Source of the DNA: Opitutales bacterium
GTDB taxonomy: Bacteria > Verrucomicrobiota > Verrucomicrobiia > Opitutales > UBA2987
Length of the DNA: 64,000 bases
NCBI GenBank assembly: GCA_965226885.1
Contig: CBDDEL010000016.1
Coordinates: forward strand, 32,001 to 96,000
Direction of reading: 5' to 3'
A program made the position numbers and the translations under genes. Numbering within the stretch: the stretch's first letter is position 1; each line of letters begins with the position of its first letter. Below, one piece after another: positions 8,821-54,244 of this stretch. The notes beneath the pieces are model-generated. The model saw only the letters and a list, made by a program, of their open reading frames with translations. It searched no databases and was not told where the DNA came from.

Positions 8821-11192
8821 ATGGAAAGCGACCACCAGAGGCATATCGCCGTAATTATGTTCACGGACATCGTGGGCTACAGCGCGCTGGCTCAAAAGAA
8901 CGAAGCCCTCAGCCTTGAACTGCTGGAGGAACACCGGGGATTGCTGCGTCCAATATTCGGACGGTTCGGGGGTAAGGAAATCGAGACCATCGGCGATGCA
9001 TTTTTCCTGGAGTTCACCAGCGCCCTGGAGGCCGCGCCCTGGAGGCCGTAAAGTGCGCCTTCGAAATTCAAAATGCTCTTTTTGGCCGCAACTCCCTGGA
9101 ACCCGGGGAGCGAAAGATCATCCTTCGCATCGGCATCCATCTCGGGGATGTCATGCAAATGGGGGAAAAGGTGCTTGGCGATGGGGTCAACATTGCCTCC
9201 CGCATTCAAACCGCAGCCAGACCCGGTGGCATTTGCATCTCCGACCACGTTTACATGCAGGTGCGCGACAAACTGGAGATGCAGTGGCAATCGCGAGGCG
9301 AGTTGAAACTCAAAAACATCGAGAGACCCATGGAGGTTTTCGATATTATTTTCCCTTGGGAAAAGGAGCAGGCAGCACCACCCAAAAGCAGAGCGAAAAC
9401 AAAATTCGCAGCAGGCAAATACCTTTGGCCCATAATAGCCGTCGCGGCAGTAGTCCTCATAGTGGGTTATTTTTGGAAATTCCCTTCCCGCGAGAGCGCT
9501 CCAACTTACGTTTCCCCTCCCGTCACGGCGGCGCCCGAGTTGCCCCATTACGACTCCATCGCCGTGCTTCCCTTCGAGAACATGAGCAATGACCAGGAAA
9601 ATGTCTATTTCGCGCGAGGCATTCACGAGGATATTTTGACGAGTCTTGCCAAGGTCAAAGCCCTCAAGGTGATCTCCCGAACCTCCGTCATGGAATATGA
9701 GAACAAGACCCGCAATCTGCGAAAAATTGCAGAGGATCTGGGGGTTTCCACTATTCTCGAAGGTAGCGTGCGACGGTCCGGTATGCGTGTTAAAATTACG
9801 GCTCAGTTGATCGATGCGAAGACGGACGAACATCTTTGGGCGGAAAGTTACGACCGGGACTTGACGGATATTTTCGCCCTCCAATCCACCATCGCCGAGG
9901 AAATCACTGGCGCTTTGAAAGCGACTCTCAGCCCGGAAGAAAAAGAAAACCTGGAAAGGCTGCCGACCCAAAGCGGAGAGGCTTACGACATCTATTTGAG
10001 GGCGCGGGACTATCACCTCCAGGCCGTGGCGGATGAAAATGCTGCCGGACAGGCCGAGAGGCTCTATGGACAAGCTATTGGGCGAGATCCGAGTTTCGCG
10101 CTGGCTCATGCTTGGCTGGCCCATTTGCACAGCGAAATGTATTGGCAGTTATCTGTGGACCGCAGTGAGGAGCGATTGCAGAAATTGAAATCGTCGGCGG
10201 ACCGGGCGCTGCAATTGCAACCGGATCTTCCCGAGGGGCAGACGGCCCTGGCCAACTATTATTACTACGGGTTTCGCAATTATGGCCGTGCCCAGGGAAT
10301 TCTGGAGAGAGTACGTGAGTCTCTGCCCAACAACGCCGAAGTGCTTGCCATTCTCTCCTATATCGAGCGCCGCCAGGGCCAATGGGAATTGAGCACGAAC
10401 CATCTTGAAAAAGCGGTCGGCCTGGACCCGCGCAATGTGGATTACAAGTTGCAGTTGGCATTAAGTTACTACCAAATGCGTGACCTTGAGGCCGCCATAC
10501 CTTTATTGGATGAAGCGCTTGAAATACAGCCCGACGCCGTGGGTCTCGCCGTCATAAAGGGCCGTATTTATTTAGGTTTGACCGGGGATACATCTGTAAT
10601 GAAAAAAATCCTGGATGAGATTCCACCTAACCTGGATCCCTATGGCCGGATTAGTAATGGCCGCTTCGTTTTAGATATCTGGGAGCGGGATTTCGAGGGC
10701 GCCCTCCCCTTTATTGAGGCTTTTGCTCAACCTGTCGATGATGGGCAATCATTCGTCAGACATCGGGATCAATACAGGGGCATGCTTTACCACTACATGG
10801 GTGATAAAGAAAAATCCCGCCGGGCCCTGGAGTCGGCTCTGGCCTTTCTGGAACCCGCTTTGGCCGAACATCCAAAGGATGCCCGCTACCATGCATCTAT
10901 CGGGTCTACTTATGCTCTACTGGAACGCAAAGAAGAGGCCATAGAGGCGGGGATCGAAGCGGTGAAACTGATGCCCCAAACCAAAGACGCCTTGGTAGGA
11001 AATGATTACGAACGGAATTTAGCTGGCATTTATGCGAATGTTGGTGAGCCCGACAAAGCCATCGACCTGCTTGAGGATTTGCTCTCCAAACCTGGCAGGT
11101 TGGCCGTACCCGCGCTGCGAAATCTTTGTTATTGGGATCCACTACGCAGCCACCCAAGGTTTCAGGCATTGTTAGCCAAAGACGGCGGATAA
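8821..11192 (+). pseudogene. Class III nucleotide cyclase + TM + TolB-like + TPR protein, frameshifted
   Basis: [39 protein letters not shown], TPRs; 14-bp duplication at 9020-9047 breaks the frame. Confidence 0.9.
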
Positions 11193-11299
11193 ATTTTCTC
11201 CATTAAAAGAATGCTATAATCGAGATAAGTCGCACCGACCCATCGGTTGGGGCGGGATCCCCAAATGTTTTCACCCAAAATTAATCACACTGGAAGGTA

Positions 11300-11854
11300 T
11301 TGGTAATGAACTATAAGAGAAAATATCTATCGTTTTACGCAATAATTCTGGTAAGCGTTAGCTTGCACAATAATGTTTCCATTGCAGAAGAAGAGGCAAT
11401 GTCTGATTATAATCTAGACACCTCTATTAAGAAAACTGTCGAGAATGAATTGGGTAGTTTCAAAAATAAACTGCTTGAAAAGAGACATATTAACAAAAAA
11501 GCGGTCTATCCACTGCTTAAAAAATACCTCCGGGATAAACCTCGAATCTACGGCGCGGCTTTTGCTTTCGGGCCCGATATAAAAAATAAGCAGCAAATAA
11601 AATCTTCACCATACGTTTATAGGGACGGCAAAAAGTTGATCGAGAAAGATTTGCTTGATAGCTATGATTATACAACGCAGGGCTGGTACGCCATTCCTGC
11701 AAATTTAAAGAAACCTGTTTGGAGCAAACCCTATTTCGATGAAGGTGGAGGCGAAGCCTGGATGATAACTTATTCCATACCGTTATATTCCGACCGAAAC
11801 AAAACAAAACTCATTGGAGTTCTCACAAGCGACGTTTTAATACCCAAGGAATGA
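11300..11854 (+). CDS. Stand-alone secreted Cache-domain protein
   Basis: Signal-like N-terminus; SPYVYR, YDYTTQGWY, WSKPYFDEGGG..MITYSIP. Confidence 0.8.
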   Translation: MVMNYKRKYLSFYAIILVSVSLHNNVSIAEEEAMSDYNLDTSIKKTVENELGSFKNKLLEKRHINKKAVYPLLKKYLRDKPRIYGAAFAFGPDIKNKQQIKSSPYVYRDGKKLIEKDLLDSYDYTTQGWYAIPANLKKPVWSKPYFDEGGGEAWMITYSIPLYSDRNKTKLIGVLTSDVLIPKE

Positions 11855-11984
11855 TTACCTTACCGGTCTTTGACCATATACGACATGGGCATTGGGGGCA
11901 TCGATTCTGGGATTTCCGGCCTTGTAGCCAGAGGTGCGGGCAGGACTGCTCTTTGTTTTGACAGCAATGGATAATTCACATTGG

Positions 11985-12786
11985 GGTAGTGTATAAAAAA
12001 AGAATGTTATTTTGTATTTTTAGCTGTACAAATAGCGTTAGGCAGTTTATTCTTAGTGCATGGTTACTAAAATTATTAATTGTCGGCACTGTGGAAGTGA
12101 AAATATCATTAAATTTGGCAAGACGCCCAACCATAAGCAGCGCTACCGCTGCCATGATTGTGGTAAACAAAGCCGCGAAAACCCCACAGTGAAATACACC
12201 GAAGAGCAAAAAGAAATGATCCTTCGAGTCTATCAGGAACGCAGCAGTCTACGCGGTTTACAGCGCGCCTTCGGGGTGAGTCCCAACACCGTTTTGAGTT
12301 GGTTAAAAAAAACGACAATCGCTGCGACCGCTCAAAAGCACGATTCTTGCGGCCCGCCGCCATGATGTCATTGAACTGGACGAACTGTGGTCTTTTGTGG
12401 GGCGCAAGAGCGATGCCCAATGGGTTTGGATCGCTCTTTGCCGACGCACCCGTCAAATCCTCTCCTATGCCATTGGGCCTCGGGATTGGTATCGTTGCCG
12501 GGAACTTTACGAGCGTCTGCCACGGGCCTACAAAAGATGTGCCACCTACAGCGACTTTTGGAGCACTTATGATGAAGTCTTTCCTCATAACCGATCCGTG
12601 GGAAAAGAAACCGGTGAAACGGCCCATGTGGAACGATGGAACAATACCCTGCGCCAACGACTGGGTCGTTTCACACGCAAAACCCTCTCCTTTTCCAAGC
12701 TTAAGAGTATGCATGAAACCTGTCTGAGACTTTTCATTCATCAATATAATCAAGAATTAGCCACCATTCCTACTTAATACACTACC
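11985..12786 (+). mobile_element. IS1-family type A, full copy
   Basis: IRs GGTAGTGTAT / ATACACTACC; insA 12060-12365, insB to 12777; flanks do not match. Confidence 0.95.
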
Positions 12787-13004: not shown

Positions 13005-15523
13005 TGTAAACGCCGGGATGAAACCGGTACGGGGGTCGGGGTAAAACCGGTACGCTTGGAATAAGGTTTAGGTTAGTAATTGCAGGTACGTCAAGGTTTA
13101 GGGTTTGGGAGTTGGTTTTGGGGATTGGCTTGGGGTCGGTGAGGAGGCCGGAGGCCGACGAGCCGGGCCCAAGGCGTTTATTGTTTTGTGCCACGGCGAC
13201 GGCGTCGAGCATCGCGCAAGCGGTAGCTTTGCCCGTTGGCTTCGAGGATATGCACCCGATGGGTGAGTCGGTCCAGCAGAGCTCCGGTGAGCCGTTCGGA
13301 ACCGAGCACTTCGATCCAGTTCTCAAAGGGCAGGTTGGTGGTGACGATGAGACTGGTGCGCTCGTAAGCGCGGCTGACCACGTCGAAGAGCAGTTCGGAA
13401 CCGGTCTTGGAAAAAGGGACGTAACCGAGTTCGTCGAGGATGAGTAGGTCGAGCCTTTCGAGTTGCTTCATGAAGCGCTGCAGGTCGTGGTTGTCGCGTT
13501 GCTCGAGCATATGGGTAACCAGGGCGGTGACCCCGAAGAAACGGATCCGCCGGCCCTGGGCACAGGCGGCAAAGCCCAGGGCGGTGGCCAGGTGCGTTTT
13601 ACCGGTACCGGCGTTACCGAGGAGCAGCACGTTTTCGCGCTGGTCGACATACTCCCCGCGCATGAGCTCTCGGATGAGCGCTTCGCTGATCGAGGGCTGC
13701 GCTTCAAAGGCGAAGCTCTCGAGGGTCTTGAGCACGGGGAAACGGGCGTTTTTGATCCGCCGCTGGGCGGCCCGCTGTTCGCGTTCAATGAGCTCCCGTT
13801 CGACCAGATGCAACAAAAAGGCGGCGTAATCGAGCCGGTCCCGGGAACAAGCCGCGGCCACCGCCGGCCATTCGCGCAGGATGGTGGGCAACTTCAGTTT
13901 CTTGAGGTGATGGTGTAACAGCAGCTGGTTTTTTTCTTCCTTCATAAAGCCCCTCCTGGAATCTTGAGCAGTTCGCTGTAGGCACCGAGGTCAGGGGCGG
14001 CCACACGGACGTGACGCAGGTGTGGATGGCCGTCCAGCCGGAAGGTTCTGCTCCCGTAGTCTTCCTGAGGATAGAGATACTGGGCGATGGCCTCACGAGT
14101 CAGTCCCCCCCCACCCGCAGGGCCGAGACGACGGCCTGCTGCAAGGCCGCCATGGGGTGTTTCTCCAACAGCCGCAGCACCCGGATATACTCCCGGGTGC
14201 CTTCGCCCCCGCATTGGCTTTCGAGCCGGCGTCTGAGGACCTGCAGGCACTGCGGCAACTGCCAGCCCGAGAGTGGGCGGGCGAAGTCCAAAGCGCCCGG
14301 TTTTTTCTCCAGCAAAGCCAGGTAGTGCACCGGCTCGAAAGAGACTTGCTCTTTATCCCAAATGCGGCGGTGCCGGGCCACCTCTTGGCCCCCACAGAAG
14401 ATCACCACCTGCCGACAGGACCCTTCCACCACCACCGGATGGTGGGCGCAGCGCACCGGCACCGAATAGTCGTTGCACTCGAAGCGCACCAGCGAGAGGC
14501 TGCTGACGCAGGTCGAGCGTTTGCGGCTCGCTTCAAAGGGTATGGGCGGCAACGCCAGCATGACGGCGCGCTCCTCGGCCAGCAGTTCCTTTTTCACCGC
14601 CCTTTTCCCGCGTAATTTACGCTCCATGTCCCGCTCACATGCCTCCAACAGCTTTGCGTTGAGTTCCTCCAGGTCCCGAACCTGCGGTACCGGTACCAGG
14701 AAGTTGGCCCGGGCATAACGCACGATCCCCTCGACCACGCCCTTCTCGTTGGGCCGGGCGGGCAGACAGAAGTGTTCCTCGAACAGGTAATGGCTCTGTA
14801 GCTGCAGAAACCCGTCGGTCAGCTTGCGTTCACGCGAACCGATAATCTTACCCACCGCCACCTTCGAGTTGTCATAGCTGATGCGCCGGGGCACCGCCCC
14901 GAAAAACTCAAAAGCTCGCAGGTGCCCCTCCCAGAAGCTCTCCGTGCACTCCCGTTCGAACACCTGCACGAAAAAGGCATCGCTGTAGGGCAGGCTCATG
15001 GCAAAAAATGGCCGCCTACGCAATTGCCCCGCCTCCTTCACCAGGGCATGACCGAAGTCCACCTGTCCCTCCCCGGGGCGGTGCTCCAGCGGCACGAACA
15101 CTTCCCGCCGCCTCGCTCGCAGCTCGGCCACCACCTCCTTGACCGCCGTGTAGCCCCCTTGGTAGCCCTTCTCCCGACCCAAACGCTGGTAGATCCGTTT
15201 GGCCGTATGGCGCTGCTTCTTGGGCACGTTCCGGTCCGCTTTGAGCACCTCCTCGATCCAGCCCACATACGGATCGATCTTGCGCTCTCGCCTCTTCTTG
15301 CGCCGGTATCCCGGCGGCTGGGAATAGGCCAGCATCTTTCCCAGGGTCTCCCAGTGCAGTCCCTCTTCTCGCATTACAGAGCGCTTGCTCTGCTTGTCCC
15401 GCAGCACTTTGTGCCGCACTCTTGTCCATTGCTTCATATCTCGATACACTCCTCCTTTCTAGGATAAGCGTACCGGTTTTAAAGCGCCCTCTTTACCGTA
15501 CCGGTTTTTCCCCGGCGTTTACA
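13005..15523 (-). mobile_element. IS21-family element copy 1 (istA frameshifted at the C-run near 14105; istB 13178-13945)
   Basis: TGTAAACGCCGGG ends, internal ACCGGTAC repeats; QVDFG, YDN, NEKG.VE; istB GNAGTGKT and LILDELGY. Confidence 0.95.
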
Positions 15524-19826: not shown

Positions 19827-21589
19827 CCCGGATATTTCATGAAGGGTAAAGTTTGGCTCGTTATTGCTATTGGAGATGGATTTCTTTGTATTTTGAGCAG
19901 ATCGTCTTGATTTTTAGGTGTTTTTCAGGGTGTAGAGACACTGCCCCCTTTCCCCCATTGGTTCGGTAGTGCCGGGGGCAGCACCAATGCACCCTTTAGC
20001 CCGGATATTTCATGAAGGGTAAAGTTTGGCTTGCTATTGCTATTGGAGATGGATTTCTTTGTATTTTGAGCAGATCGTCTTGATTTTTAGGTGTTTTTCA
20101 GGGTGTAGAGACACTGCCCCCTTTCCCCCATTGGTTCGGTAGTGCCGGGGGCAGCACCAATGCACCCTTTAGGTTGGCACCAATCGGCGGGCCGCATGGT
20201 TGAAAAGACTGGCCCAAGGATAACTCTCACTTAGGTGAAAGTGAATCGTTCGGGTGTTGCGCACGATGACCGCTCCGATCTTGATTAATTTGAGCCGCAG
20301 GGTGTGGCATTGGGCCCGCGCCCACTTCGTCCCTTTTAAGGCTAACCGGCGCATGGCTTCCATCAAGGTGTAGGCCAGCGCCGACAAGAGCAATCGCCAC
20401 TGATTGGCCCACCATTGATGGGCGCTGGTGCGCTCGCTGAACAATTGCATCTGTTCCTTGATTCGGTTCTCCATTTCACCGCGGCCACAGTATACCTTGT
20501 CGTAAAGCTCCTGGGGATCGCCCGGCAGGTTCGTCACCACGAAGCGCGGGTTGGACCCCTGTGCGGTGTGTTCGGCTTTATGGATGACCAACCGCAGCCA
20601 TCGCCACGAATCGGCAGCATAGACGAAGTCCTGGAATAACCGTTGTTTTTTACCCCTTAGTTCGAACCATTCTTTGGCCTGCTTTTGCAACTGCTGGGCG
20701 TCTTGCTGCAAGCGTGCATTGCGAGCCATCCCCACGATGTAACTAACTTCGTTGCGGTCGCACCAAGAGAGTATCCGGTCTCGACAAAATCCACTGTCGG
20801 CGCGCCAAATAATCCGCGTACGGGGCCAGCTTTGGCGAATCCGTTTAACCAGCAATTTGAGGATGGCCCCGGCATGCTTGCTGGCATCGATCTTGCTCGG
20901 CCGCAGGTAGGCCACCAGCAGCTGATCACCGCAAAAAACATATAGCGGCAGAAAACAGTAATGATCATAATAACCGTGGAAAAAACGTCCCTCCTGGAGC
21001 CCGTGCACCGGATTGTCGGTGGCGTCAAAGTCCAGGATGATCTCTTCGGGTTCCTCGGCAAAGGAGCCCATGAACTGTTCGACCAACAGCTCGTTTACCG
21101 CAAAGGCCGCCCGCCGATCCTGCCCGTTTTCAAAACGACACAAAGTCGGCGCGCTGGCCAACGTTTCAATGCGCCCCGTTACCGTTTGCAACAATGGATC
21201 GTGGCGCAGGGTATCAAAGTCGTTCAAATCCTCATAGCCCGCCACCAGCCCGTAAACGCGCTGCCGCAGCATCCCCAAGACCTCATGGCTTACTTTGCCC
21301 TTCTGCCGTTTGTCCACTAACTGTCGGGCCGCTCGTTCGGTCAAGCCCAACTGCCGATCCACTTCCCGGATCAAAAGCAGTCCGGCATCCGAAGTAACCT
21401 CTCCGCCCTTGAAATCAACCCGCACACGGCGGCCTTTTACCCTTGTCAACTGTAGCTTTAATTGTTTACCTTTTGTCATCTTTTGTCATCGCTGATATTG
21501 CTTTAATTATTGATCTATCCTGCTGTATATCACTGCTGTATATCAGCAGTTAAGCATATCAACGATACTTTTTTTACGAAATATCCGGG
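19827..21589 (-). mobile_element. IS1380-family element (tnp 20169-21479) with doubled 173-bp 3' end
   Basis: CCCGGATATTTC IRs; TTAA on both flanks; ILDFDATD, RADSGF, YCGRGEMENRIKE. Confidence 0.94.
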
Positions 21590-22449
21590 TTAAGGGGCTG
21601 GAAATCAACTTGAAGGAGCGTCTGTGGTCGGGCGGGGCCTACATATTCACCGCCTTTTTACTGGTCGGCTGCCTTTACCGTTTTCGCAACAACCTGGCTG
21701 CAACAACCTGGCTAACAGCATGCGTTGGTGCGCTGTTTTAACCATACTCATCGTTCTGGTCCTGCAGCCATTTTTCAACAGCGGCCTATCGCAAAGACTG
21801 CCCGCCATTTATCTGGCACCCCTCATCATCTTATTTGGGGCCGGCTTTGTCATCATCATGCTGGAGAGCACCGGCCGGCGATTGCAAATGGAACGTATGG
21901 TCTGGATTTCGGCCTTGCTGCTATTCCAGGCCATACCGATGGTCCACAATTTGATGGAGCCCAAAAGAAATCCATTTACATATCCACCCTATATCCCCTC
22001 TCTGCTGGCCCGCACACGCACCCACCTGTCCGATCGGTTTTACCCCGGTTATGGGTTCATGTCGGATGTGCCCGCCGGGATGGCCTGGTATTCCCAGCAA
22101 CCGGTGTGGGCACAACCCGGCGAATATTCCGATTTTGTGGAGACCCTCCTACGTCAGGAAATCGGGGCTCTCTTTCTTTCCCCAAAAGTGCTCGACCGCC
22201 CTTATTTTTCCCAACTGCTGCAAGCGGACCTGGAACTGGGAGACGATTATAAAAAGAAAAGATATTGGGGCGCTGTCTACGGTAGCCTGCAGCAGGGCTC
22301 TCTACCGCGGTTTTTTCCCTTGAGTCAGGTCCAGCAAATTTCCACCAACATGTATGTGCTTTCCAATCCCCTTGCCTGGCGTCAGGAATAAAAAAAATTG
22401 TATTGACCCTGGTAGGTTTTGCCTGCACCTTTACCGGCGCTTAATACAG

Positions 22450-24543
22450 ATGAATAAAGCCACACCACTACTCCTGCTTGTTGCATTGCAAACCACGCTA
22501 TTTTCGGCGTTTACGCTCCCATCCCGGAGCAGGAACAAGGAAAGGCGATCGTTTTGAGCCTCGAAGGCGGCTACCATTACGACAGTAACATTCTGGGCAG
22601 CCCCAGTAACGACCCGGACAGACCGGTTCAGGACAGTTCCGTCTTCACCGTTACCCCCGGCATCAAGTACAACGCCTCCATTGAGGAACAAAGCTTTATC
22701 CAGGCCTCCTACCTGCTGAACGCCCTCCTTTATTCGGAACGACCCACCGAGGACAAGCTCTACAACCATTTTTTCAACGTCAGGTTTTCGCACACCTTTA
22801 CGCCCACTCTAATTTTGGAAGTGTCCGACGCTTATTCATTAATCGACAGCCCGGAATCTTCTTTAGATCTTCCTTTTAATGAAGGACAATTGCAGACCAA
22901 TCAGTCCAACAACATTAATCAATTCGATTTCAGTTAATCAATTCGATTTCAGCCTGGCTGCGGAATTGAGCCCAAAAACCAGCATGGTCTTTAAATACCG
23001 CAATTTTAACTTTGCTTACGATGATACCCCAGTAGCGTTTCAATTGGATCGCAATGACAATCTCTTTGGCATCCAGGCAGGCTACAACTGGACTCCGGAA
23101 GCTTCATTGGTCTTCGAATATCGATCCCAGGACCGCGCCTACGCCTTCGACGGTGGTGCGAAGAACAGCGATTCCAGCTTTTTTCTATTCGGGGTGGACT
23201 GCGGGGTGGACGGGGTGGACTGCGGGGTGGACTGGATTCCAAGCCCCACCTTTCAGATAAATGGGCGCCTTGGCGTGGACGACCGTGAACGGGAAATCGG
23301 CGCAGGCGACACCAATTTTTGGTAGTGTATAAAAAAAGAATGTTATTTTGTATTTTTAGCTGTACAAATAGCGTTAGGCAGTTTATTCTTAGTGCATGGT
23401 TACTAAAATTATTAATTGTCGGCACTGTGGAAGTGAAAATATCATTAAATTTGGCAAGACGCCCAACCATAAACAGCGCTACCGCTGCCATGATTGTGGT
23501 AAACAAAGCCGCGAAAACCCCACAGTGAAATACACCGAAGAGCAAAAAGAAATGATCCTTCGAGTCTATCAGGAACGCAGCAGTCTACGCGGTTTACAGC
23601 GCGCCTTCGGGGTGAGTCCCAACACCGTTTTGAGTTGGTTAAAAAAAACGACAATCGCTGCGACCGCTCAAAAGCACGATTCTTGCGGCCCGCCGCCATG
23701 ATGTCATTGAACTGGACGAACTGTGGTCTTTTGTGGGGCGCAAGAGCGATGCCCAATGGGTTTGGATCGCTCTTTGCCGACGCACCCGTCAAATCCTCTC
23801 CTATGCCATTGGGCCTCGGGATTGGTATCGTTGCCGGGAACTTTACGAGCGTCTGCCACGGGCCTACAAAAGATGTGCCACCTACAGCGACTTTTGGAGC
23901 ACTTATGATGAAGTCTTTCCTCATAACCGATCCGTGGGAAAAGAAACCGGTGAAACGGCCCATGTGGAACGATGGAACAATACCCTGCGCCAACGACTGG
24001 GTCGTTTCACACGCAAAACCCTCTCCTTTTCCAAGCTTAAGAGTATGCATGAAACCTGTCTGAGACTTTTCATTCATCAATATAATCAAGAATTAGCCAC
24101 CATTCCTACTTAATACACTACCCAATTTTTATGGCCAGCTAACCGGAATTTACCAGTACCATCCCGATTCGTTTATGGCTTTCAGCATCACTTACGAAAC
24201 GGTCGAAACCTCGGCTCCCGTTGCCTTTTCCGGTGAGGAAACCTTCTCCTTATTGCTCAATGTTCAACATGCCCTCACGAGCAAGATATTCCTGGCCGGT
24301 TCCATTTATTACGATACGGCGGACCTAATTAAACAAAATGCTCTAGCAAATATTAGCGACAATACCGTTCGCCTCGGTTTAAGCGCCATCTACCAGCCTA
24401 CACAAAACTGGTCGATCATCTTCAGCTACGATTTTGACGACACCGATTCGGATGATCCCTCTTTAGCCCCGGGGGCCATTAATTCTCGCACGGAAACCCG
24501 GTCCCGGGTAGGAATCAGCGCCCGTTACACCTTTGGTCTGTAA
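22450..24543 (+). pseudogene. Outer-membrane beta-barrel associated with polysaccharide export, multiply disrupted
   Basis: Signal peptide, YDSN motif, ends ARYTFGL; frameshift near 22502, 19-bp duplication, nested 12/21-bp duplications, IS1. Confidence 0.8.
23321..24122 (+). mobile_element. IS1-family type A copy with 8-bp TSD CAATTTTT
   Basis: TSD at 23313-23320 and 24123-24130. Confidence 0.96.
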
Positions 24544-25993
24544 GCCTGGAAAATATTTTTATCCGGTCGTCCAGTCGACAATCACAAATTTGAACTGGAG
24601 AATCTTGGCGCGGCTAACAGATTTATCCTCGTTCCACCTCAATTGAAGCAATAATTGCTCACCCATGGAATCCAATCTAAAAAAGACGGCTGCCGGCTTT
24701 TCACTCGGCGACTTCCTTAAAGTCCTCAAAACCCGTTGGCCCCTGATTACGCTTTTACTCCTTCTGGTGCTCAGTTCCACAGTTCTTTTTACCTATTTCA
24801 TGCCCAGATGGTACCTGTCCATAGCCGGGATACGGGTGGAAAAAGCTGAAGGGCAAGTTTCAGTTTTCGAACGCCAGAGGACCGGTAGTTTCGATCCCTA
24901 CTTCAACAAAGAGCAGTTCGAGATTATTCAGAGCAAAAAAATACTCCGTCAGGTGATCCGGAATCTCGACCTCGTCAATTATATCAGTCGAGACCTCGGC
25001 GCGCCCATAGACGAGGAATATGCTTACCAGTATATGGTTAAACAAATGCTCCTGGTAGAGTCCCGACCCGGCACCTCCCTTATCGACATCGGCGTGATGG
25101 TTAAAGGAAACCGCGATAAAGCCGCCGAAATTGCCCACGAAATTGCCCGTGTTTATGCCGAAGACCGCATTAAATTCGCTACCTCTGCCCAAACCGAGGG
25201 CATCGTGAGACTCAAGCAGGAACTTTTGCGGCAGGAAGTTTCCGTCTCTCAGGAACGCGACAAGGTGGAAAAATTGCGTCAGGAACTAGGGATCTCCGGA
25301 GTGGACCTAAATGCCCAGACGACACAACTGGATATCGACAACCTGCGGCAACTCGAACGCACCTACATCGCCGTAAAAGTCGATTCCATTGCTCGAAAAA
25401 CCCGCTGGGAGCAATTTAAAGCCGTTCCGGTCGAAGAGCGAATCCGGTTGATCAATTCCGAACTCATTCCAGACGTTAACCTGCAAAACCTCATGCAGGC
25501 CTACATGGTAGCCGAGCAGCAGCATGTCCGCGCCAAAGGGCGCCTGGGCCAAGCCCATCCCGATTTCTTGGCGGTGGAAAATACCCTCAAAAAAATCCAC
25601 GAACAATTGCTGAACCAATTGCTGAACCAGTTGATCGGATTCGAAAAATCCCTCGAAATATCCTATATCGAATCCAGGGCGCGAACCGATGAAATGAAAA
25701 ACCAGCTCAAGCTAGCCCGGGTCGATCAGATTCTGGATGCCCAAAGCAAAATGCGACCCTTTGAGGAAGCCGTGGATCGTTTGAGGGATGAGGAAAACCT
25801 CCTGCAAACCTTTCGATTGACCCTGCGCCAAAGGGAGATCGATTTCCAGGCCCCCAAACGAACCATTGAAATGCTCAACCAAGCGGTACCCTCGCTACGC
25901 CCGCACAAACCAAACTGGCTCCTCAATCTGTTTCTGGCCATCTTTGGAGGAATCCTTCTGGGCGTGGGGGCGGCTTTTATGGTCGAATTTTTC

Positions 25994-26617
25994 GACACCA
26001 GTTTTTGTTCCATCGAAGAGACACCAGTTTTTGTTCCATCGAAGAGACACCAGTTTTTGTTCCATCGAAGAGACACCAGTTTTTGTTCCATCGAAGAGAC
26101 ACCAGTTTTTGTTCCATCGAAGAGACACCAGTTTTTGTTCCATCGAAGAGACACCAGTTTTTGTTCCATCGAAGAGACACCAGTTTTTGTTCCATCGAAG
26201 AGACACCAGTTTTTGTTCCATCGAAGAGACACCAGTTTTTGTTCCATCGAAGAGACACCAGTTTTTGTTCCATCGAAGAGACACCAGTTTTTGTTCCATC
26301 GAAGAGACACCAGTTTTTGTTCCATCGAAGAGACACCAGTTTTTGTTCCATCGAAGAGACACCAGTTTTTGTTCCATCGAAGAGACACCAGTTTTTGTTC
26401 CATCGAAGAGACACCAGTTTTTGTTCCATCGAAGAGACACCAGTTTTTGTTCCATCGAAGAGACACCAGTTTTTGTTCCATCGAAGAGACACCAGTTTTT
26501 GTTCCATCGAAGAGACACCAGTTTTTGTTCCATCGAAGAGACACCAGTTTTTGTTCCATCGAAGAGACACCAGTTTTTGTTCCATCGAAGAGACACCAGT
26601 TTTTGTTCCATCGAAGA
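25994..26617. repeat. Perfect tandem array, 24 x 26 bp GACACCAGTTTTTGTTCCATCGAAGA
   Basis: 624 bp equals 24 units, with no spacers. Confidence 0.97.
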
Positions 26618-36200: not shown

Positions 36201-36816
36201 ATGGCAAACTGGGACCGGAAACCTATTTAGGATTGAGCATTTTTCACGGCAATTCGGATGTAAAGCGAAACCGGAACGCCTTCGAGGCCGCATTTTTCCC
36301 CTTTCCCCCCACCGACGTCAACGCGTTCTCCTTCGAGGAGACATTCGACTACGAAGAAACCCACATTGCCCTGCGATTGGACCAGCTTTTGGGCAATTCG
36401 TGGTCAATGGGGCTGCGGTTTTCCTGGAACAATGCCCAAATTGACAAATCGACCCCCGGTTTTCCGCAAACCGTCGCCCCTTTCCCCGTCCTGCCAAACC
36501 TGGCCGCCGACTTAATCAATGCATCCTGGAAAATTCGCTACCATTCGGCCAACGGCATTTTCGCCCGCGCCGAATACAGTTACTGGTGGCAGGTTACTGG
36601 TGGCAGGACAATCGCAATTATCAACCGGAACTGCCGGGGGACACTTTTCGCATGATCAATCTGGAAGTGGGCTTTCGCCTCAAAAGCGATCGCGGTGAAT
36701 TTTTGATCGGTTTGTTGAACATGACCGACGAGGATTACCGTATAAATCCGCTCAACAATTTTAACCAACTGCCTCGAAAGCGCACCTTCATCGCAACGGG
36801 CAGGATCAGTTTTTGA
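33236..36816 (+). pseudogene. FecR + TPR + TonB-receptor-like beta-barrel protein, frameshifted near the C-terminus
   Basis: GDRVRTG..SRA, TPTANGAIRGTEF, TPRs, barrel ending TGRISF; 14-bp duplication at 36579-36606. Confidence 0.88.
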
Positions 36817-41349: not shown

Positions 41350-43449
41350 ATGCGGAATTCGCCAACCAAAAGCTTGTCCCAGTATATCGCCGGATTGCTC
41401 ATCGTTTGCGGCATTGGCTTGATGGTCATGTGGCATCCCTATGGGATGGGATTGCGGAGGCTTGGTTTCGATCTTCTCTTTCATAGCCCTCTGCACCTTC
41501 ATCAGGTCAACCGGTTAAGCCGGGATTTCGTAATCGTATATCTTGACGATTTATCTCACCGGGCGCTCGGACAACCCTACGACCGTATTTGGAATCGGAG
41601 CCTGCATGCCCATCTGCTCAACAGATTGACCGAGGAAGGCGCCCGTTTGGTTTTTTACGACATTGTATTTGACCTGGAAAGCTCGAATGAAGAAAGCGAC
41701 CTGGCGTTCGAGACTGCCATTGCCGAAAACGGGAAAGTGATCATGGGAGCCGGATTGGACAGACAAGAGGGTTTTGACACCGATTATGAGGAGATCATCA
41801 TCGCGCCGAACAGCAGATTCCGTAGAAAAGCTTTAGCCTGGGGCATGATTAACAGTCCCCTCGATCCCGATCAGGGAATCCGCATATTGGCCACCGGTAA
41901 CGAAAATATCCCCACGGCCACCTGGAAAACGGCGCTCCTCCTGGAGCCGGATGTGGAAAAAAGCCTCGGCTCCAGATTGCAGGAACGTTGGATTAATTAC
42001 ACGGGTTATCCCGACTCGATCCCGTCTGTCAGTTTTATGCGGGCTTTGCAGGCTGACGGTTTGAAACCGGGATTTTTTAAAAACAAAATCGTTTTTATCG
42101 GGGCCAAGGGTTCGGTTGGTTTTTCGGGTAGCGCCAAAGACACTTTCCGATCCCCCTACCGCGATGCCGGGCGTAACTTGTTTTACAACGGAGTGGAAAT
42201 CCACGTTATGGCCCTCGAAAATCTTCTCAATTTGAATTGGTTCACCCTCCTGACAGCAAAGCGCGAAGCCATGATTGTGGCCGGATTGGGTGTCATTTTT
42301 GTTCTCTTATTAACCCCATTGCGGCCCCTCGTATCCTTCCTCGGGGCCTTCGCGGGGTCCATCGGGCTGGCCGTAGCATCTGTTTATATCTGCCGCAGCA
42401 CGGGCTATTTTTACAGTTGGATTGTCCCGTCGTTCATTATGGCACCGACGGCTTTTTTGTGGTCGGCGGGATGCCATTATTACATCGAGGTGCGGCGGCG
42501 AAACCGATTGAAGAAGACATTCTCCGCCTACTTGTCTCCCATCATGGTAAAGCGGCTGGCGGAAGCCGACGAGGAACCTCAACTGGGCGGTTACGAAGAA
42601 AACATTACGGTGTTTTTCAGCGATGTGGCAAATTTTTCATCTTTTTCCGAACGGCTCTTCCCTCCCCAATTGACCGATGTCATGAATCTCTACCTGACGG
42701 AAATGACGGAAATCCTGCGCGAACAAGGCGGAACCCTGGACAAATATATCGGGGACGCCATCGTGGCCATGTTCGGGGCGCCTTTGGAAATGAAAGATCA
42801 CTCCTATCGAGCTTGTTGCACAGCAGCCAAAATGCAGGAGTGTCTCGGCCGATTGAGAAGCGAGTGGTCGCATAAAAATGGAAATCAGGCCGCAGCTTTG
42901 CGAGAGTTGAAAGCTCGAATCGGAATCAACACGGGAATCGCCACTGTGGGGAATTTCGGGTCCAAATATCGTTTGAACTACACCATGATGGGCGACATGG
43001 TGAACCTGGCCGCCCGATGCGAAAGCGGGGCAAAAGCATACGGCGTTTACATCATGCTGACGGAAGATACAAAAGCGGCGGTGGAAGAGGATTCTTCCGA
43101 GTTTGTATTCCGGTTTCTGGACAAAGTCCGGGTCAAGGGCCGCCAGAAACCGGCCAACCTCTATGAGCTGTTAGGTTTCCGGGCCGGTCAACCGGAGTCG
43201 GCTCTGGAATGTATCCATGCCTACCAACAAGCCCTCGATAAATATTTCGAGAGGGACTGGGATGGCGCCGTTTCCCTTTTGCAACATGCCGCTCTATGGG
43301 AACCCAACAGACCTGCCGAAGCCAAGGCCGAGGAGGGAGATAACCAGAAAGTAACTCCATCGATTCTTCTCCGCAACCGCTGCCTGCAAATGAAGGAAAA
43401 CCCACCCAACAAGGATTGGGACGGCGTTTACACCATGTCATCAAAATAA
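41350..43449 (+). CDS. CHASE2-domain adenylate cyclase
   Basis: CHASE2 (DPDQGIR, GVEIH), 3 TM segments, FSDVANFS, DKYIGDA, NYTMMGD.VNLAAR.E; start uncertain. Confidence 0.92.
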   Translation: MRNSPTKSLSQYIAGLLIVCGIGLMVMWHPYGMGLRRLGFDLLFHSPLHLHQVNRLSRDFVIVYLDDLSHRALGQPYDRIWNRSLHAHLLNRLTEEGARLVFYDIVFDLESSNEESDLAFETAIAENGKVIMGAGLDRQEGFDTDYEEIIIAPNSRFRRKALAWGMINSPLDPDQGIRILATGNENIPTATWKTALLLEPDVEKSLGSRLQERWINYTGYPDSIPSVSFMRALQADGLKPGFFKNKIVFIGAKGSVGFSGSAKDTFRSPYRDAGRNLFYNGVEIHVMALENLLNLNWFTLLTAKREAMIVAGLGVIFVLLLTPLRPLVSFLGAFAGSIGLAVASVYICRSTGYFYSWIVPSFIMAPTAFLWSAGCHYYIEVRRRNRLKKTFSAYLSPIMVKRLAEADEEPQLGGYEENITVFFSDVANFSSFSERLFPPQLTDVMNLYLTEMTEILREQGGTLDKYIGDAIVAMFGAPLEMKDHSYRACCTAAKMQECLGRLRSEWSHKNGNQAAALRELKARIGINTGIATVGNFGSKYRLNYTMMGDMVNLAARCESGAKAYGVYIMLTEDTKAAVEEDSSEFVFRFLDKVRVKGRQKPANLYELLGFRAGQPESALECIHAYQQALDKYFERDWDGAVSLLQHAALWEPNRPAEAKAEEGDNQKVTPSILLRNRCLQMKENPPNKDWDGVYTMSSK

Positions 43450-43473: not shown

Positions 43474-43500
43474 CCAGAATCCAGAATCCTGCATCCTGAA
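43474..43500. repeat. Short degenerate heptamer tandem repeat between convergent genes
   Basis: CCAGAAT CCAGAAT CCTGCAT CCTGAA. Confidence 0.45.
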
Positions 43501-43507
43501 ACTCCGC

Positions 43508-43819: not shown

Positions 43820-43943
43820 TTCAATTACTACGGATTAATCCTAGGAAGCGATTCAACCCCTGAAAAGAAAAATCGTTTGCGACTTTTAAAGTCATAAATT
43901 TTTTGTTATGAAAGAGAAAAGAAGAAAAGAATCTAAACACCCT

Positions 43944-44756: not shown

Positions 44757-45081
44757 AGCCGAACATGACCTTCCGACCCCCATTCACTCCTGTAAAACAC
44801 CGATTAGCTCCAGTTATTGTGGCTTAAATTGGCACCTGATACTTGGTAGGTTTCCCTTACTTGCAAAATTCAAACTCCCCCATACACCATAACTTGAGAG
44901 ATTCTTGAGACATAAAATTCAAAGGAATCTTTTTTCGATGAGAGAACTCAATTATTCCAATAATCTTTCTACCATAATAACTGAAAATGGCATAAATCTG
45001 CCATAAAAAATAATTTCAATACTATAACTCGTTAATTTCAATACTATAACTCGTTATATATCAATTATATAAAAGCATCTA

Positions 45082-45167
45082 GCCCGGGTGGCGGAATGGT
45101 AGACGCTGCGGACTTAAAATCCGCTGTCCGAAAGGACGTGAGGGTTCGACTCCCTCCCCGGGCACCA
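45082..45167 (+). tRNA. tRNA-Leu (anticodon TAA)
   Basis: GCCCGGG acceptor stem, GCGGA-CTTAAAA-TCCGC anticodon arm, long variable arm, GGTTCGACTCC, CCA. Confidence 0.97.
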
Positions 45168-45299
45168 CATTTAATCAGTTGATAATCAACGATCTTTAAT
45201 ATTAAAGACTTTAAAATAAAATAGAGCCGAGGCGAATAGAAACGAAGCAAATACCCCCTAAATACCCGAAAAAGTAGCAACATAATAGCAACGAACGGT

Positions 45300-45600
45300 T
45301 TTAGTTTTACGTCGTTTGGACTTGCTGAACCAAGCGAGGAGGGGAAAACAGGTCGTGGGCTCTCATAAAAAGGAGGCAAAGCCCGATTTCCTTCCATTCC
45401 TTTAGGCATACCGCAACCAGCCTCTTGAAAAACGCCGGAGTCTCCGAAACAGTAGCAATGGACATTATCGGACATAGCTCAAAGGCAATCAGCCGGGTCT
45501 ACACTCACATTGATGATGCCGCCAAGCGAAAAGCTCTGGATTCCCTACCAGATATTACCCTAAAGTATTACCCTAAAGTGAATTCTAATAGATTTTGGGC
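45300..45600 (+). pseudogene. C-terminal remnant of a second tyrosine recombinase
   Basis: FHSFRHTATSLL.NAGV, IIGH, YTH. Confidence 0.8.
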
Positions 45601-45665
45601 CATCTTTAATGTTAAAGACTTGCTCGAAGACATGGCCCATTTCCATAAAGAAACCCCACCATCCC

Positions 45666-45742
45666 CTGCAAAGCCTACAATACCAAACCTTACCTACGGA
45701 AATACTCTCACTTAAATTGGTATTAAAGATGGGGTCCGATCA
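45666..45742 (+). mobile_element. Diverged right-end relic of IS3 type b
   Basis: Matches the last ~70 bp of 7113-8397, ending GGGGTCCGATCA. Confidence 0.8.
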
Positions 45743-46077
45743 AAGGAGCCATCTTTAATATTAAAGATTCTGTAAATCCCTACTCAACCGGCAACCCCGC
45801 CGGGACGTTGAAAAGGCTACCATCGTCAAACCTTTGGAAAAACCGACGATCCAGTTTGCCTTCAATATTGAGCTACCAACTCAATCGCCATCTACTGTAT
45901 GGAGGTCCAGGCATCCGATTCCTATCCGGGTTTACCGGACATTCATTTACAGAAAACCAAAATCTTTAATATTAAAGATTTCTTGCAAAATTTGGCCGAA
46001 TTTTTAAGGTGCCCCAAAATAGGCTGTGTAGACGCTGCCTACAATATGTTGGATGTGGATCGAGAATAAAGAAACCG

Positions 46078-46824
46078 ATGAGTGAATGGCAGACCAAGGA
46101 ACTCACGGACGCTTTTTTGGATGGTATTCGTGGGGCTATCCCCGGGGCCGATATGCAATTAGCCGTTCTGGGCAAAGTTGCAAGGCTGTGGTGCCCCCAT
46201 TCCTCCGAAATTCTCGACGTGGGGTGCGGTGACGGCCTCCTGGGGCATTTTCTCCTCGATATTTTTCCCAAAGCTCATGCCACCTTTGTCGATTTCTCTG
46301 ATCCCATGCTCGACGCAGCTCGCACGCGTCTAACGGAGACATCACGGGCAACGGTGGTCAAAGCGGATTTCTCAAATCCGCAGTGGCGTAGCATCCTTCC
46401 CGCAGAGAATACATTCGATATTGTTGTTTCAGGTTTTGCGATCCATCATCAGCATGATGACAGGAAAAAGGCGCTTTACTCCGAAATCTACGACCTCCTT
46501 ACCCCTGGCGGCATTTTTCTGAACCTGGAACATGTCGCCTCCATTACACACGCAGGAGAGCAGCTCTCCGACGAGTTTTTTATTGACCACCTCTACGACT
46601 TTCACACTTCATTGAACCCCGGAAAGACGAAGGAGGAAATCGCTGACATTTATTATAACCGACCGGATAAGAAGGAGAACATACTCGCCCCGATCGAGGA
46701 TCAATGCTCTTGGCTTCGCGAAATCGGATTCCAAGACGTTGATTGCTTCTTCAAGATCTTTGAACTGGCCTTGTTTGCAGGACGAAAAGCATCCAACAAG
46801 CCGAATGCAGGCGACGGCAAATAG
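46078..46824 (+). CDS. Class I SAM-dependent methyltransferase (gene cassette)
   Basis: ILDVGCGDG, VDFS..ML, FDIVVSGFAIHH, L.PGG.F. Confidence 0.92.
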   Translation: MSEWQTKELTDAFLDGIRGAIPGADMQLAVLGKVARLWCPHSSEILDVGCGDGLLGHFLLDIFPKAHATFVDFSDPMLDAARTRLTETSRATVVKADFSNPQWRSILPAENTFDIVVSGFAIHHQHDDRKKALYSEIYDLLTPGGIFLNLEHVASITHAGEQLSDEFFIDHLYDFHTSLNPGKTKEEIADIYYNRPDKKENILAPIEDQCSWLREIGFQDVDCFFKIFELALFAGRKASNKPNAGDGK

Positions 46825-50865: not shown

Positions 50866-51060
50866 CCCTTAGAGGCTAAATAGAGACCCCAAAAGATAGC
50901 AACATAATAGCAACAAAAAATCATTTTTATTGATAATCAACAAGTTATGACATATTTTATCGAACTTAAAATCCGCTGTCCGAAAGGACGTGAGGGTTCG
51001 ACTCCCTCCCCGGGCACCACATTGATGATCAATGAGTTAAGAAACTTTTTAAGGTCAAAT

Positions 51061-52390
51061 TGATGTGCACTGGAAAAAGTGGACACGAGATTCTCCTAAA
51101 TGGAGAATCGAAGCATGGGAAGAAGACGCTTTAGTATAGAGTTCAAAAATGAGGCAGTTCAACTGATGATACTCGATGGTCTGAGCGCCACCGAGGTATC
51201 GACCAAACTTGGGGTCAACACCAACCAATTGTATAGGTGGAAGAGGCTCTATCTGGACGATCAGCAGGGCGAAGCCACCTCAAAGCGACAGAGCAGTCCG
51301 AAGGAGATGGCGGCCGAGATAGATCGTCTTCGCAAAGAGCTGCGCCGCTCGGAGCGGATCAACCAGATACTAAAAAAAACGGTGGGCTACTTTGCCAAGG
51401 ACGAACAATGAAGTACCAGTTTGTCAAAGACAACGAGGGGCGCTTCAAGATCGAGGAAATATGCTCGGCGATGGGGATTTGTCGCAGTGGCTATTACTGC
51501 TGGAGGCACCGAGCGCCCTCGGCCCGGCGGATCGAGGACGAGGGAATCAAGGGGGCGATCCTGAAGGTACACAAAGAGGCCAAGGGCCGCTATGGGCATC
51601 GGCCAATGCACCGCCATCTGAAGGATGATGAGGGCATCGATTGCGGCCGTGACCGGGCTCTGCGTCTGATGCGTGAAATGGGAATCAAAAGCACCCAGAG
51701 TAAACGCTTTAAGCCATTAAAAACCAACAGTAACCATCCCTATGGTTACAGCCCCAATGTGCTTAAAAAGCATGGCCAGCCGACCCATATCGACGAGGTC
51801 TGGGTGGCGGACACGACCTACCTACGGACCCTGGCCGGTTGGATGTACTTGGCCACGGTGATGGACCTGTTCAGCCGACGCCTGCTGGGCTGGAGCGTTT
51901 CCAACCACAACGACGCGAAGCTGGTTGGCAAGGCCCTCAAAGCCGCGGCCATGACCCGCGGCACACTGCGCACCGGGGGATTATTCATCACAGCGATCGG
52001 GGCAGCCCCTACGCCAGCGACGACTATCAGAGGCTGGTCTCTGAACTAGGCATGAAGCCGAGCATGAGCGCCCAAGGCAACTGCTACGACAACGCGGCCA
52101 TGGAATCGTTCTACGGCCGCTTCAAGACCAGCACGATTCGAGGCCGCCACTTTGCCGACGAGCGCGAACTGCGATCAACTGTCTTCGAATACGTGGAAAT
52201 CTTCTACAACCGATATCGCAAACATTCCTCTCTGAGTTACCAAAGCCCAGTCCAATTCGAGGAAAATATTTGCCCCCCATGGGGGGCAACGAGAAAACAA
52301 AACCCTTTACCAAAACAAGCCGCCTGACACACTAATCAATAAACAATGAATATAAGAGAATCCCGTGTCCAACAAATCCAGTACACGTCA
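51061..52390 (+). mobile_element. IS3-family type a copy, orfB frameshifted at the G-run near 51975
   Basis: 2 nt longer than 26618-27945 (G5 versus G3). Confidence 0.95.
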
Positions 52391-52463
52391 ATATTGTTAA
52401 AGATCATGACATTAATGCCGGTGGTCTCTTTACCTCATGGAACCCACTGAGTCATCTTAAATA

Positions 52464-54244
52464 GAGGCTGTCCCAAAAGGGTGATTTTTGCGAGGGCTTT
52501 TGATAGGCGCTCATTTTAGAGGTATTTGCATTTGGGAGAGTATCAACTTTGCTCTCCTATGACGTTAGGATACTGGTTTTGGGGTCCGGTTGCCTGGTTT
52601 TCTTTGTATGAGCCGACAGTAAGGCTGTGAAAAAGTATTGTCCTTGCTTTTCCGCTCTCTAGGCCGCCGCTTTGGTTTTTAGTTCGTCTTGCTGGGCCAG
52701 CATCTTGGCTACTTTCCATAGGTTGTGCGAGAGTACCGACCAGGCTACGCTGATCGAGCGGTTGGCAAAGCCTTTGCTGCGCAACCGCCTGGCCCGGCGC
52801 TTTTGCAATTGCCTGAACAGTGGTTCCTCCATCCGTTTTTTCAACTGCTTCGGATCGCGTGGACAGAGCGCGTCGTAGATTCCCTCCTGGGCTAACTGCC
52901 GGCGGGCCCGCTGGGAGGCAAATCCCCGGTCCGCGCACATGGCCGCTATGGGTTCTTCCAGGTTGAAGCGGTTCTGTCTTTGCAAACTCTCTAGCATTTG
53001 TTCATTTTCGCTTGGAGTTCGGCTGCCGTAGAGTTTCCAGTCCAGCAGGTACCCTTCAACGCTTTCTCCCAAAAACAGGGTGTTGCCGAACTCGACCTCT
53101 TGGCCCGCTTTACCTCGCACAATCACCTGCCCATCGAGTTCGTAAACACTCAAGACTTTCTCTGCGTTTTTCACCTGCCGGCCGCCAATGATCCGCTCGT
53201 GCGCCTGTTTGATGACCACCGGGATTTGCTCGCTCATGCGCTCCATCCGGGCGAGGATCTGTTGGACCTGTTTTTCGCTGTAATCGCTTTGCTCCCAGCA
53301 GGCTTGCAATAATTCCCGGTGACTGCGGGCATGCTCCCCGATCCGTTTGAGCAGCTTTTTCATCTGCCTCAAGATACCCTTGCGCTGCCGCGCGCTGTCC
53401 TTTCGCCGCCGGCTGTGGGTCATCTGTATGCACAGCCGATTCATCTGCCGAGCCAAGGGCTCCGGTTCGATCGGCATGCGATGGCGCAAACCGGCCTTCT
53501 CGCGGATCAGCCGGATCGCTTTGAGCAACGTGCCGGCTACATCCTTGAGTAATACCCAGTCCGTCGGCCAATGAATGTTAGCCTCCAAACAGGTGCCGTC
53601 GATCAGGCAAATGGTGGTGTCAATCGGCTTGTCCAATCCCACCTGCCGGGCCAGAAGGGCATCGCCCACCACCTCAGTCAAGGTCCGGTGCAAGGCCCTC
53701 AACTGCTCTTCGCTGAAAAACTTCGAGGCCCGCTCCAGGGTGCTTTTGGAGATGCCCCTGATGCCATCGATCTGCCGGACACGGCAAAAGTCGGCCAACA
53801 GATCGCTGCTGCCCAGAGCCCGCGACAAATGCCGAAACGAAATCCCTCCGAGCAGACGGCCCAGCGTATCCATGCGCAGTGCCTTGATGGCAAAACTGGC
53901 CCGCTGCCGCCGGGCCTTTAGACCCATTGGCGGCCACCCCTCCAAGGCCAGCTCAATGGCCTGCGATTCCACCTCCGAGTCGATCAGCAGCCGATCGATT
54001 CGATCAATGGTGGCGCGGAAGTTATCGTAATCGAGGCACCGGTCGACCACAGTTAAAGCTGGACGCAGGAGGCATTGGATGGCTATATTTTTCATAGAAA
54101 GGGCTATATTGATTTTCGCTAACTCAATTATAGAACCCATAGAACCCTTTTTTGGCCGGATCGAGCAAAAACTTGCTCTTTCCGGCTCTTTTTATCAACG
54201 TCATCCAGTTGACTATAAAATCTTTATATTTTTGGGACAGCCTC
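52464..54244 (-). mobile_element. IS5/ISNCY-like element copy 2, both ends present, 6-bp TSD TAAATA
   Basis: IRs GAGGCTGTCCCAAAA; 45-bp in-frame deletion removes STEGRIG; 9-bp duplication at 54130-54147. Confidence 0.9.

Follow-up and report, generated by a model that had tools for sequence, protein, structure and literature searches.

Short, repeat-independent tandem duplications with an oriented junction motif in an Opitutales genome, and the possible role of a topoisomerase III-type enzyme

How does a bacterial genome come to carry exact, short head-to-tail duplications at many unrelated places, when the duplicated units have no sequence in common and their junctions offer almost no microhomology? 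This question is raised by a 64-kb stretch of an Opitutales bacterium of the phylum Verrucomicrobiota (contig CBDDEL010000016.1, positions 32,001 to 96,000; G000:C16:32001-96000 in our numbering), here called the window, which belongs to a genome (G000) of 5.48 Mb in 17 contigs, with 52% G+C and an estimated completeness of 96%. A first-pass annotation, made from the letters of the window, had listed twelve such duplications and had suggested a dedicated mutational process as their source. All 12 were verified as exact head-to-tail repeats with correct coordinates and unit lengths, by a sequence check and by Tandem Repeats Finder (TRF), and two 9-bp dimers that had not been listed (1292 and 42695) were added. 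The duplications exist, are derived and recent, and reflect a lineage-specific process. As their source we propose, with moderate confidence, an error in the reaction of a topoisomerase III-type enzyme.

Over the whole genome, we identified 730 exact tandem repeats with a period of at least 9 bp and 605 with a period of at least 10 bp, whereas two Markov-3 simulated genomes of the same size (5.48 Mb) contained 26 and 31, and 5 and 7, respectively. For periods of at least 9 bp, approximately 0.3 loci per 64 kb would be expected by chance, versus 14 found in the window, which had 11 dimers of at least 10 bp. Genome-wide there were 579 simple dimers of at least 10 bp and 29 loci with at least three copies; dimers of period 9 numbered 125, compared with 21-24 in simulated sequence. 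Duplications were not enriched in repeated DNA (189 of the 579 dimers; repeats make up 35% of the genome). Unit lengths formed a continuum from about 6 to 50 bp with no fixed target-site sizes. Among units of 16-40 bp, 267 were exact, 19 had one mismatch and 10 had two, the corresponding counts in shuffled sequence being 0, 1 and 0. A small aged class of duplications therefore exists, and the bulk of them are young.

The microhomology at a junction can be measured as the distance over which the unit can slide without changing the sequence. This slide ambiguity was 0-2 nt at the 12 duplications listed for the window, as had been claimed. Genome-wide, 324, 142, 68, 20 and 6 of the 579 dimers had an ambiguity of 0, 1, 2, 3 and 4 nt, against a random-flank expectation of 326, 163, 61, 20 and 6, and microhomology of at least 3 nt was found in 45 dimers (8%), which is the chance level. 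Thus, no pre-existing repeat is required at the duplication junctions. For comparison, 13% of de novo tandem duplications in microbes are reported to lack microhomology and about 70% to have arms of at least 3 bp (bioRxiv 10.64898/2026.02.28.708716).

It had been noted that the units share no motif. This holds for the units, but their flanks do share one. We analyzed the junctions of 290 unique dimers of at least 10 bp with unambiguous boundaries, that is, 580 boundaries, each read towards the unit. The base located 5 nt outside the unit was C at 274 of them (47-48%, background 26%), and the excess was seen in unique DNA (204/436, p=2e-20) as well as in repeats (70/144, p=7e-9). Around this mark, hereafter C(-5), A was present at 37-41% at positions -4 and -3, T at 42% at -2 (51% in the oriented events defined below) and G at 31% at +1, and T was enriched at -8/-7. 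C occupied position -4 in just 16% of boundaries, against 47% for position -5. The mark was not seen in dimers of 7-8 bp (29-30%), which are mostly chance repeats.

At least one flank carried C(-5) in 230 of the 290 events, whereas about 45% of events would be expected to do so by chance. Exactly one flank was marked in 186 events, both in 44 and neither in 60. A mark on the left flank thus tends to exclude one on the right (odds ratio 0.31, p=1e-6), which makes the events oriented. In the 186 oriented events, the fifth-from-last base of the unit itself was C in 52%, on the same strand as the flank mark. Same-strand pairs of C(-5) occurred in 122 of the 290 events, versus 38 expected. The mark thus sits on one strand at both partners of the join. 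A palindromic site, such as a type II-like enzyme would cut on both strands at every boundary, was considered and rejected: flank C(-5) had no positive association with in-unit G(+5) of the same boundary (odds ratios 0.62 and 0.75). The termini of insertion sequences (ISs) were likewise rejected as a source of the motif, which none of the consensus ends of six IS families carried.

Is this signature confined to one genome? The density of exact repeats with a period of at least 10 bp, per 100 kb, was as follows in this genome and its relatives:

G000, this genome: 11.0 over the whole genome (11.4 in unique DNA)
G004, same genus: 5.3 (80 in 1.505 Mb)
G002, same genus: 1.35 (3 in 223 kb)
G001, same genus: 0.5 (1 in 200 kb)
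G008, same family: 1.75 (in 400 kb)
G019, same order: 0 (in 200 kb)

The scan of exact dimers proposed in the first-pass annotation, made here against simulated sequence and related genomes, supported an excess on both counts (605 versus 5-7 repeats; 11.0 versus 0-5.3 per 100 kb). In G004, the slide distribution was again close to chance (37/22/10/5/3), and the junctions had C(-5) in 29 of 74 cases (39%, p=0.009) and G(+5) in 41%. The signature, weaker than in G000, and the motif are thus both present in this sister species, which indicates a trait shared by at least two species.

The IS copies of G000 provide a nearly neutral record in which the direction of change can be read. Repeats of at least 300 bp with at least 90% identity account for 35% of the genome and 38% of the window, where IS tracts lie, for example, at 11984-12786, 13005-15523, 19995-21593, 26618-27945, 28275-31423, 46891-49407, 51060-54247 and 61102-61905. 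Each of six IS families is represented by 30-230 full-length copies. Most of these copies are 99.5-99.8% identical, a sign of a very recent IS burst. We took the consensus as the ancestor and counted unique variants in 741 full-length copies of these families. There were 975 substitutions, 80 clean tandem duplications of at least 4 bp, 33 further insertions, the majority evidently duplications of a compound or nested kind, and 23 deletions of at least 4 bp. The ratio of about 80-113 duplications to 975 substitution variants amounts to approximately one duplication of at least 4 bp for every 9-12 variants, and duplications exceeded deletions by about four to one. Microhomology of 3-8 nt was present at 18 of the 23 deletions and of at most 1 nt at the other five; ordinary microhomology-mediated deletions therefore coexist with microhomology-free duplications in the same DNA. 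Together with the chance level of microhomology at the dimers, this bears out the earlier proposal of a process distinct from repeat-mediated slippage. Few duplications were of 4-5 bp and many of at least 6 bp, suggesting a lower size limit near 6 bp.

Duplications in the IS consensus sequences were clustered at hotspots. One boundary was common to duplications of 6, 7, 9, 11 and 14 bp, and another to duplications of 20 and 24 bp. The density was 3.4 times higher outside open reading frames (ORFs) than inside them. Pile-ups were observed in the non-coding IS ends, at about 1627-1677 in the family found at 52462-54247 and at about 25-58 in the family found at 19995-21593, and they included compound and nested events at a single hotspot.

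Some duplications recurred in identical form in 2-6 IS copies that occupy separate loci, whereas the unit was single in 100-270 sister copies; for example, a 14-bp duplication was found in four IS copies on four contigs, as against 151 single copies. Random error would not produce such recurrence. Independent sequence data were also available. Six public runs from three studies contain the region 38700-46800 of the window. The Logan contigs of one of them (X1), an independent k-mer assembly, covered 21565-23346 (1782 nt) and 24098-25993 (1926 nt) with no differences and no gaps and reproduced four of the duplications (21686, 22915, 23190 and 25604). It should be noted that X1 may be the source sample; this agreement excludes an artefact of the assembler or polisher, not one specific to the sample. 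At two further sites, 9020 and 36579, both in unique DNA, three congeners (G001, G002 and G004) have a single unit. The unique, IS-flanked stretches 21594-23318 and 24126-25993 had depth in X1 alone; X3 and X6, which contain 98% and 64% of the sampled words of 38700-46800, had none there. These stretches may be strain-variable, or their coverage may have been filtered out.

Which enzyme could leave such a mark? Cleavage by type IA topoisomerases is likewise characterized by a dominant C at a fixed distance upstream of the break, on the strand that is cut, and by weak preferences for A/T beside it. Human TOP3B prefers C-5, T-2, T+2 and T+3, and replacement of C-5 suppresses its cleavage (PMC9363430), whereas bacterial topoisomerase I prefers C at -4 (PMC3467081; PMC11999072), a register that the junctions of G000 do not follow. 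For E. coli topoisomerase III, a weak selectivity is described, the base at -5 being read by an arginine (PMC13476441). The register of our junctions, C-5 with T-2, equals that of TOP3B and not that of topoisomerase I, although it comes from mutation junctions and not from cleavage assays, and the oriented events had no T+2/T+3 signal.

G000 has one locus with a type IA topoisomerase domain (PF01131), at about 753.0-755.6 kb of G000:C16, and one such locus was also present in 20 of the 21 relatives searched. On the evidence of its sequence, the 830-aa product is of the topoisomerase III type, and it is the sole type IA topoisomerase of this genome: it scored 1072.3 bits against NCBIfam NF006032 ('DNA topoisomerase III'), above the cut-off of 1058, and 237 bits against topA_bact (TIGR01051), below the cut-off of 456. 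Its closest solved relative was E. coli topoisomerase III (5e-86, versus 4e-35 for topoisomerase I), and the predicted catalytic tyrosine aligned with Y328 of that enzyme. The TOPRIM acidic motif reads D-A-G-R-E in 12 of 12 aligned sequences, from G000 (G000:C16:753531-754865) and relatives, and D-x-D-x-E in E. coli topoisomerase III.

On this basis, we consider it moderately probable that head-to-tail duplications of about 6-50 bp arise from an error in the reaction of this enzyme. The enzyme would break one strand at a point 5 nt past a C, the context being C-(A/T)-A-T-N, and would keep a covalent hold on the 5' end, with which the unit then begins. A polymerase would then extend the freed 3' end through the downstream sequence until the growing end again fits the binding groove, with a C five bases back, whereupon the enzyme would reseal it to the 5' end that it holds. 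A second copy would thereby be written into one strand and fixed at the next replication. Such a single cut would explain why the mark is on the same strand at both partners, why boundaries are shared while lengths vary, why microhomology is lacking, why there is a lower size limit and why duplications outnumber deletions. Two cuts with exchange between sister strands would also fit the motif; however, that variant predicts equally many microhomology-free deletions, and just 5 of the 23 deletions had a microhomology of at most 1 nt.

The closest published case is a laboratory strain of E. coli, engineered or evolved, in which a defined substitution in topoisomerase I, topA R168C, leads to tandem duplications that are repeat-independent, measure 2-19 bp and fall at hotspots (PMC6954433). 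Both systems have short head-to-tail duplications that are independent of repeats, occur at hotspots and implicate a type IA topoisomerase. They differ in that the present signature belongs to a natural lineage of two species, in which the type IA repertoire is limited to a topoisomerase III-type enzyme with no R168-like change, extends to lengths of about 50 bp and has an oriented C(-5). In a full-text search of the literature, we found no natural lineage with such a signature and no junction motif, and PMC6954433 was the only report to tie bacterial tandem duplications to a topoisomerase. The oriented, one-strand junction motif is new here.

Several observations weigh against a topoisomerase III-type origin. 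The low-duplication genomes G001 and G019 also have a topoisomerase III-type protein as their only type IA enzyme, so the mere presence of the enzyme does not account for the difference between these genomes and G000 or G004. A change like R168C was looked for and not found, and G000 and its relatives do not differ in the DNA-binding segment that surrounds this residue. At otherwise conserved columns, G000 alone has A14T, which lies five residues past the TOPRIM glutamate, together with K95E and E768Q; A18T, K772N, L800V and K801N are common to G000 and G004. The enzyme with a published C-5 preference is human TOP3B, and the proposed link to the enzyme of G000 is drawn from mutation junctions; bacterial topoisomerase III is described as free of the C-4 rule and as having a weak sequence preference (PMC11999072; PMC13476441). 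For the E. coli events, Bachar et al. (Nucleic Acids Res 2020; PMC6954433) found no motif. Approximately 21% of our events (60/290) lack a flank C(-5). Event orientation had no bias relative to the sense strand (56/106; 41/79 in unique DNA) and no link to the sign of GC skew (Fisher p=0.14), and hence no tie to transcription or to the lagging strand is shown. Finally, runs X3, X6 and X4 had very little depth or none over the unique sequence within 21400-25993 and are uninformative there.

The individual sites in the window illustrate how the duplications affect genes and how they develop further (positions are those of the window):

1292..1309: 9 bp x 2, exact dimer, missed in the first-pass annotation; its length permits a chance origin
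9020..9047: 14 bp x 2, exact, slide ambiguity 1; frameshift in a cyclase/TPR-type gene
21470..21490: 10 bp x 2, close to the end of an IS1380-family copy (consensus position 1476-1485)
21520..21545: 13 bp x 2, slide ambiguity 0; in the same IS1380-family copy
21686..21713: 14 bp x 2, in a degraded unique gene; covered by an X1 contig with no gaps or differences
22915..22952: 19 bp x 2, in the same degraded gene; collapse gains 369 nt of open frame
23190..23234: nested, 12 bp doubled and then 21 bp spanning it, 33 bp added in all (TRF; X1 contig)
25604..25629: 12 bp x 2, in frame, in a Wzz-domain gene (Pfam Wzz); slide ambiguity 2; X1 contig
25994..26617: 26 bp x 24.0, a perfect array with 100% matches (TRF), a duplication that has expanded further
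36579..36606: 14 bp x 2, exact, in the 3'-end region of a FecR/TonB-receptor-like gene
42695..42713: 9 bp x 2, exact dimer, missed in the first-pass annotation
45011..45072: 22 bp x 2, exact, with a degenerate partial third copy (2.8 copies, 90% matches), outside long ORFs
45553..45578: 13 bp x 2, exact
54130..54147: 9 bp x 2, close to the end of a 1.8-kb IS copy

Three of these lie in IS copies and had been regarded as derived on the grounds that sister copies have a single unit, which proved correct. The unit at 21470 was doubled in one IS copy and single in 277, and that at 21520 was doubled in one and single in 284 when matched with 20-nt flanks; by comparison with the consensus, 2 of 230 full-length copies had it. 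The duplication at 54130 was present in 4 of 114 full-length copies and has therefore been inherited by transposition. At 25994, the unit and position had been given correctly; the locus is not a dimer, however, but the array of 24 copies listed above. This array sits in a Wzz-domain gene and, as 26 is not a multiple of 3, the repeat that it encodes cycles through three frames. It is cut by an IS3-family insertion at 26618-27945, beyond which 2.3 more copies, slightly different from the array units, are found at 27941-28000. The nested structure at 23190 was confirmed by TRF. A 173-bp unit repeated twice (98% matches) was also observed at 19823-20172, at the edge of an IS1380-family copy; it is far longer than the 6-50 bp class.

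With regard to coding capacity, two genes in the window are altered by the duplications at 9020 and 36579. Removal of one unit extends the open frame from 738 to 785 codons at the former, and collapse shifts it from 1142 to 1191 codons at the latter. The duplications at 21686, 22915 and 23190 all lie within one gene that was already degraded: even with the four duplications in 21594-23318 all collapsed, two open frames of 287 and 271 codons remain, indicating at least one further lesion. Genome-wide, the median open frame was 453-632 nt at duplication sites and about 1100 nt at random sites, and among 397 sites with a unit length that is not a multiple of 3, removal of one unit regained at least 300 nt of open frame at 60. 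The suggestion that duplication is a major route of gene inactivation thus stands in so far as some genes were broken in this way, whereas IS insertion is probably the larger route of gene loss.

We also weighed explanations that do not involve a topoisomerase. The one that survives best, though we consider it unlikely, is that duplications arise by ordinary mutation at a low rate and are exposed by relaxed selection in a small population during an IS burst, with the mutation process itself unchanged. The duplications do appear to be as young as the IS burst, as only about 7% (19 versus 267 exact) have one mismatch and the IS copies are 99.5-99.8% identical, and the sites lie in shorter open frames (median 453-632 versus about 1100 nt), as this explanation would have it. 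Against it stand the yield in near-neutral IS copies of about one duplication per 9-12 substitution variants and the excess of duplications over deletions of about 4:1. Published surveys find microhomology at most microbial tandem duplications, unlike G000, and relaxed selection would not create an oriented junction motif.

A defect in the processing of Okazaki fragments or flaps is slightly less probable still. Here, a genome with a stand-alone 5' nuclease and no Pol I polymerase domain would ligate over-extended 5' flaps, and the displaced stretch would be duplicated. In its favour, DNA_pol_A (PF00476) was not found in G000 and its four congeners (13 of the 21 genomes searched lacked a match and 8 had one), and we identified just a 290-aa protein with two 5'-3' exonuclease domains (G000:C8:34002-34508). 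RNase HI (PF00075) was not found in any of nine genomes, and loss of the flap endonuclease raises tandem duplications in yeast (PMC13167724). The Rad27/flap-linked microhomology-mediated tandem duplications (MTDs; PMC13167724; bioRxiv 10.64898/2026.02.28.708716) resemble those in G000 in being short, seeding tandem repeats, being depleted from coding DNA and being able to revert. MTDs need microhomology arms, however, and are reported to be dominant across microbes, whereas the microhomology in G000 is at the chance level (at least 3 nt in 45/579, 8%). In addition, G001 and G019 are also without the polymerase domain, although their duplication densities are 0.5 and 0 per 100 kb, and a C(-5) at the distal end of the unit is not predicted by flap ligation.

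The repair inventory suggested in the first-pass annotation was carried out in this context. MutS (892 aa), MutL (598 aa), RecA (360 aa), RecQ (797 aa) and one GyrA-type subunit are intact in G000; no match was found in this 96%-complete genome to Ku (PF02735) or to ATP-dependent ligase (PF01068), both of which were matched in control genomes, and the Pol I polymerase domain was not found either. Loss of a repair gene was therefore rejected as the cause: none of the genes in the inventory separates G000 and G004 from G001, since the lack of Pol I polymerase and RNase HI extends to low-duplication relatives.

Ku and LigD constitute the bacterial end-joining pathway. The mechanism put forward in the first-pass annotation, fill-in and joining of staggered breaks, possibly after abortive cuts by transposases, relies on such joining: staggered nicks on opposite strands, made by transposases or other nickases, would yield a double-strand break with 5' overhangs, to be filled in and joined. 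This geometry would give tandem duplications free of microhomology, as observed here, with a length set by the distance between two cuts. A genome with 35% IS content has many transposases, duplications are 3.4 times denser in non-ORF IS ends, and in plants tandem duplications result from paired nicks (cited in PMC6954433). Nevertheless, we consider this origin very unlikely. The lack of matches to Ku and ATP-dependent ligase gives end joining no support; the opposite-strand marks that it predicts exclude each other (odds ratio 0.31), and the marks pair on the same strand instead. Abortive transposase cuts are not favoured either, given the continuum of lengths from about 6 to 50 bp, in place of fixed target-site sizes, and the absence of the junction motif from the ends of all six IS families.

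An artefact of assembly, polishing or library preparation is the least probable explanation and scarcely credible: nearly all units are exact and the unique sites tested were covered by a single run that may be the source sample, but the k-mer assembly of that run yields four sites gap-free, the same duplication is found in 2-6 of 100-270 IS copies, signature and motif recur in the assembly of another species (G004), long ORFs are depleted of duplications and the motif is oriented and enzyme-like.

The birth of tandem repeats from non-repeated sequence is an open question, and this lineage offers a testable route to it. Recent surveys report microhomology-mediated events to be the dominant kind across life; G000, in which about 580 events are fixed, is a clear exception. 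The oriented junction mark, which the E. coli topA study did not find, names a candidate enzyme and a concrete reaction, so that a descriptive mutator spectrum becomes testable at the bench and, across genomes, by comparing the register of the junction C with the type IA repertoire. The observations also bear on annotation, as many frameshifted genes of G000 are broken by duplications, and on genome decay in IS-laden bacteria. More tentatively, as a proposal that falls a little short of probable, the sole topoisomerase III-type enzyme of this clade may write new tandem repeats; the junctions would then be an in vivo map of its cleavage and religation, with C at -5, and this enzyme, rather than slippage, would drive gene decay by short indels and the birth of repeat arrays.

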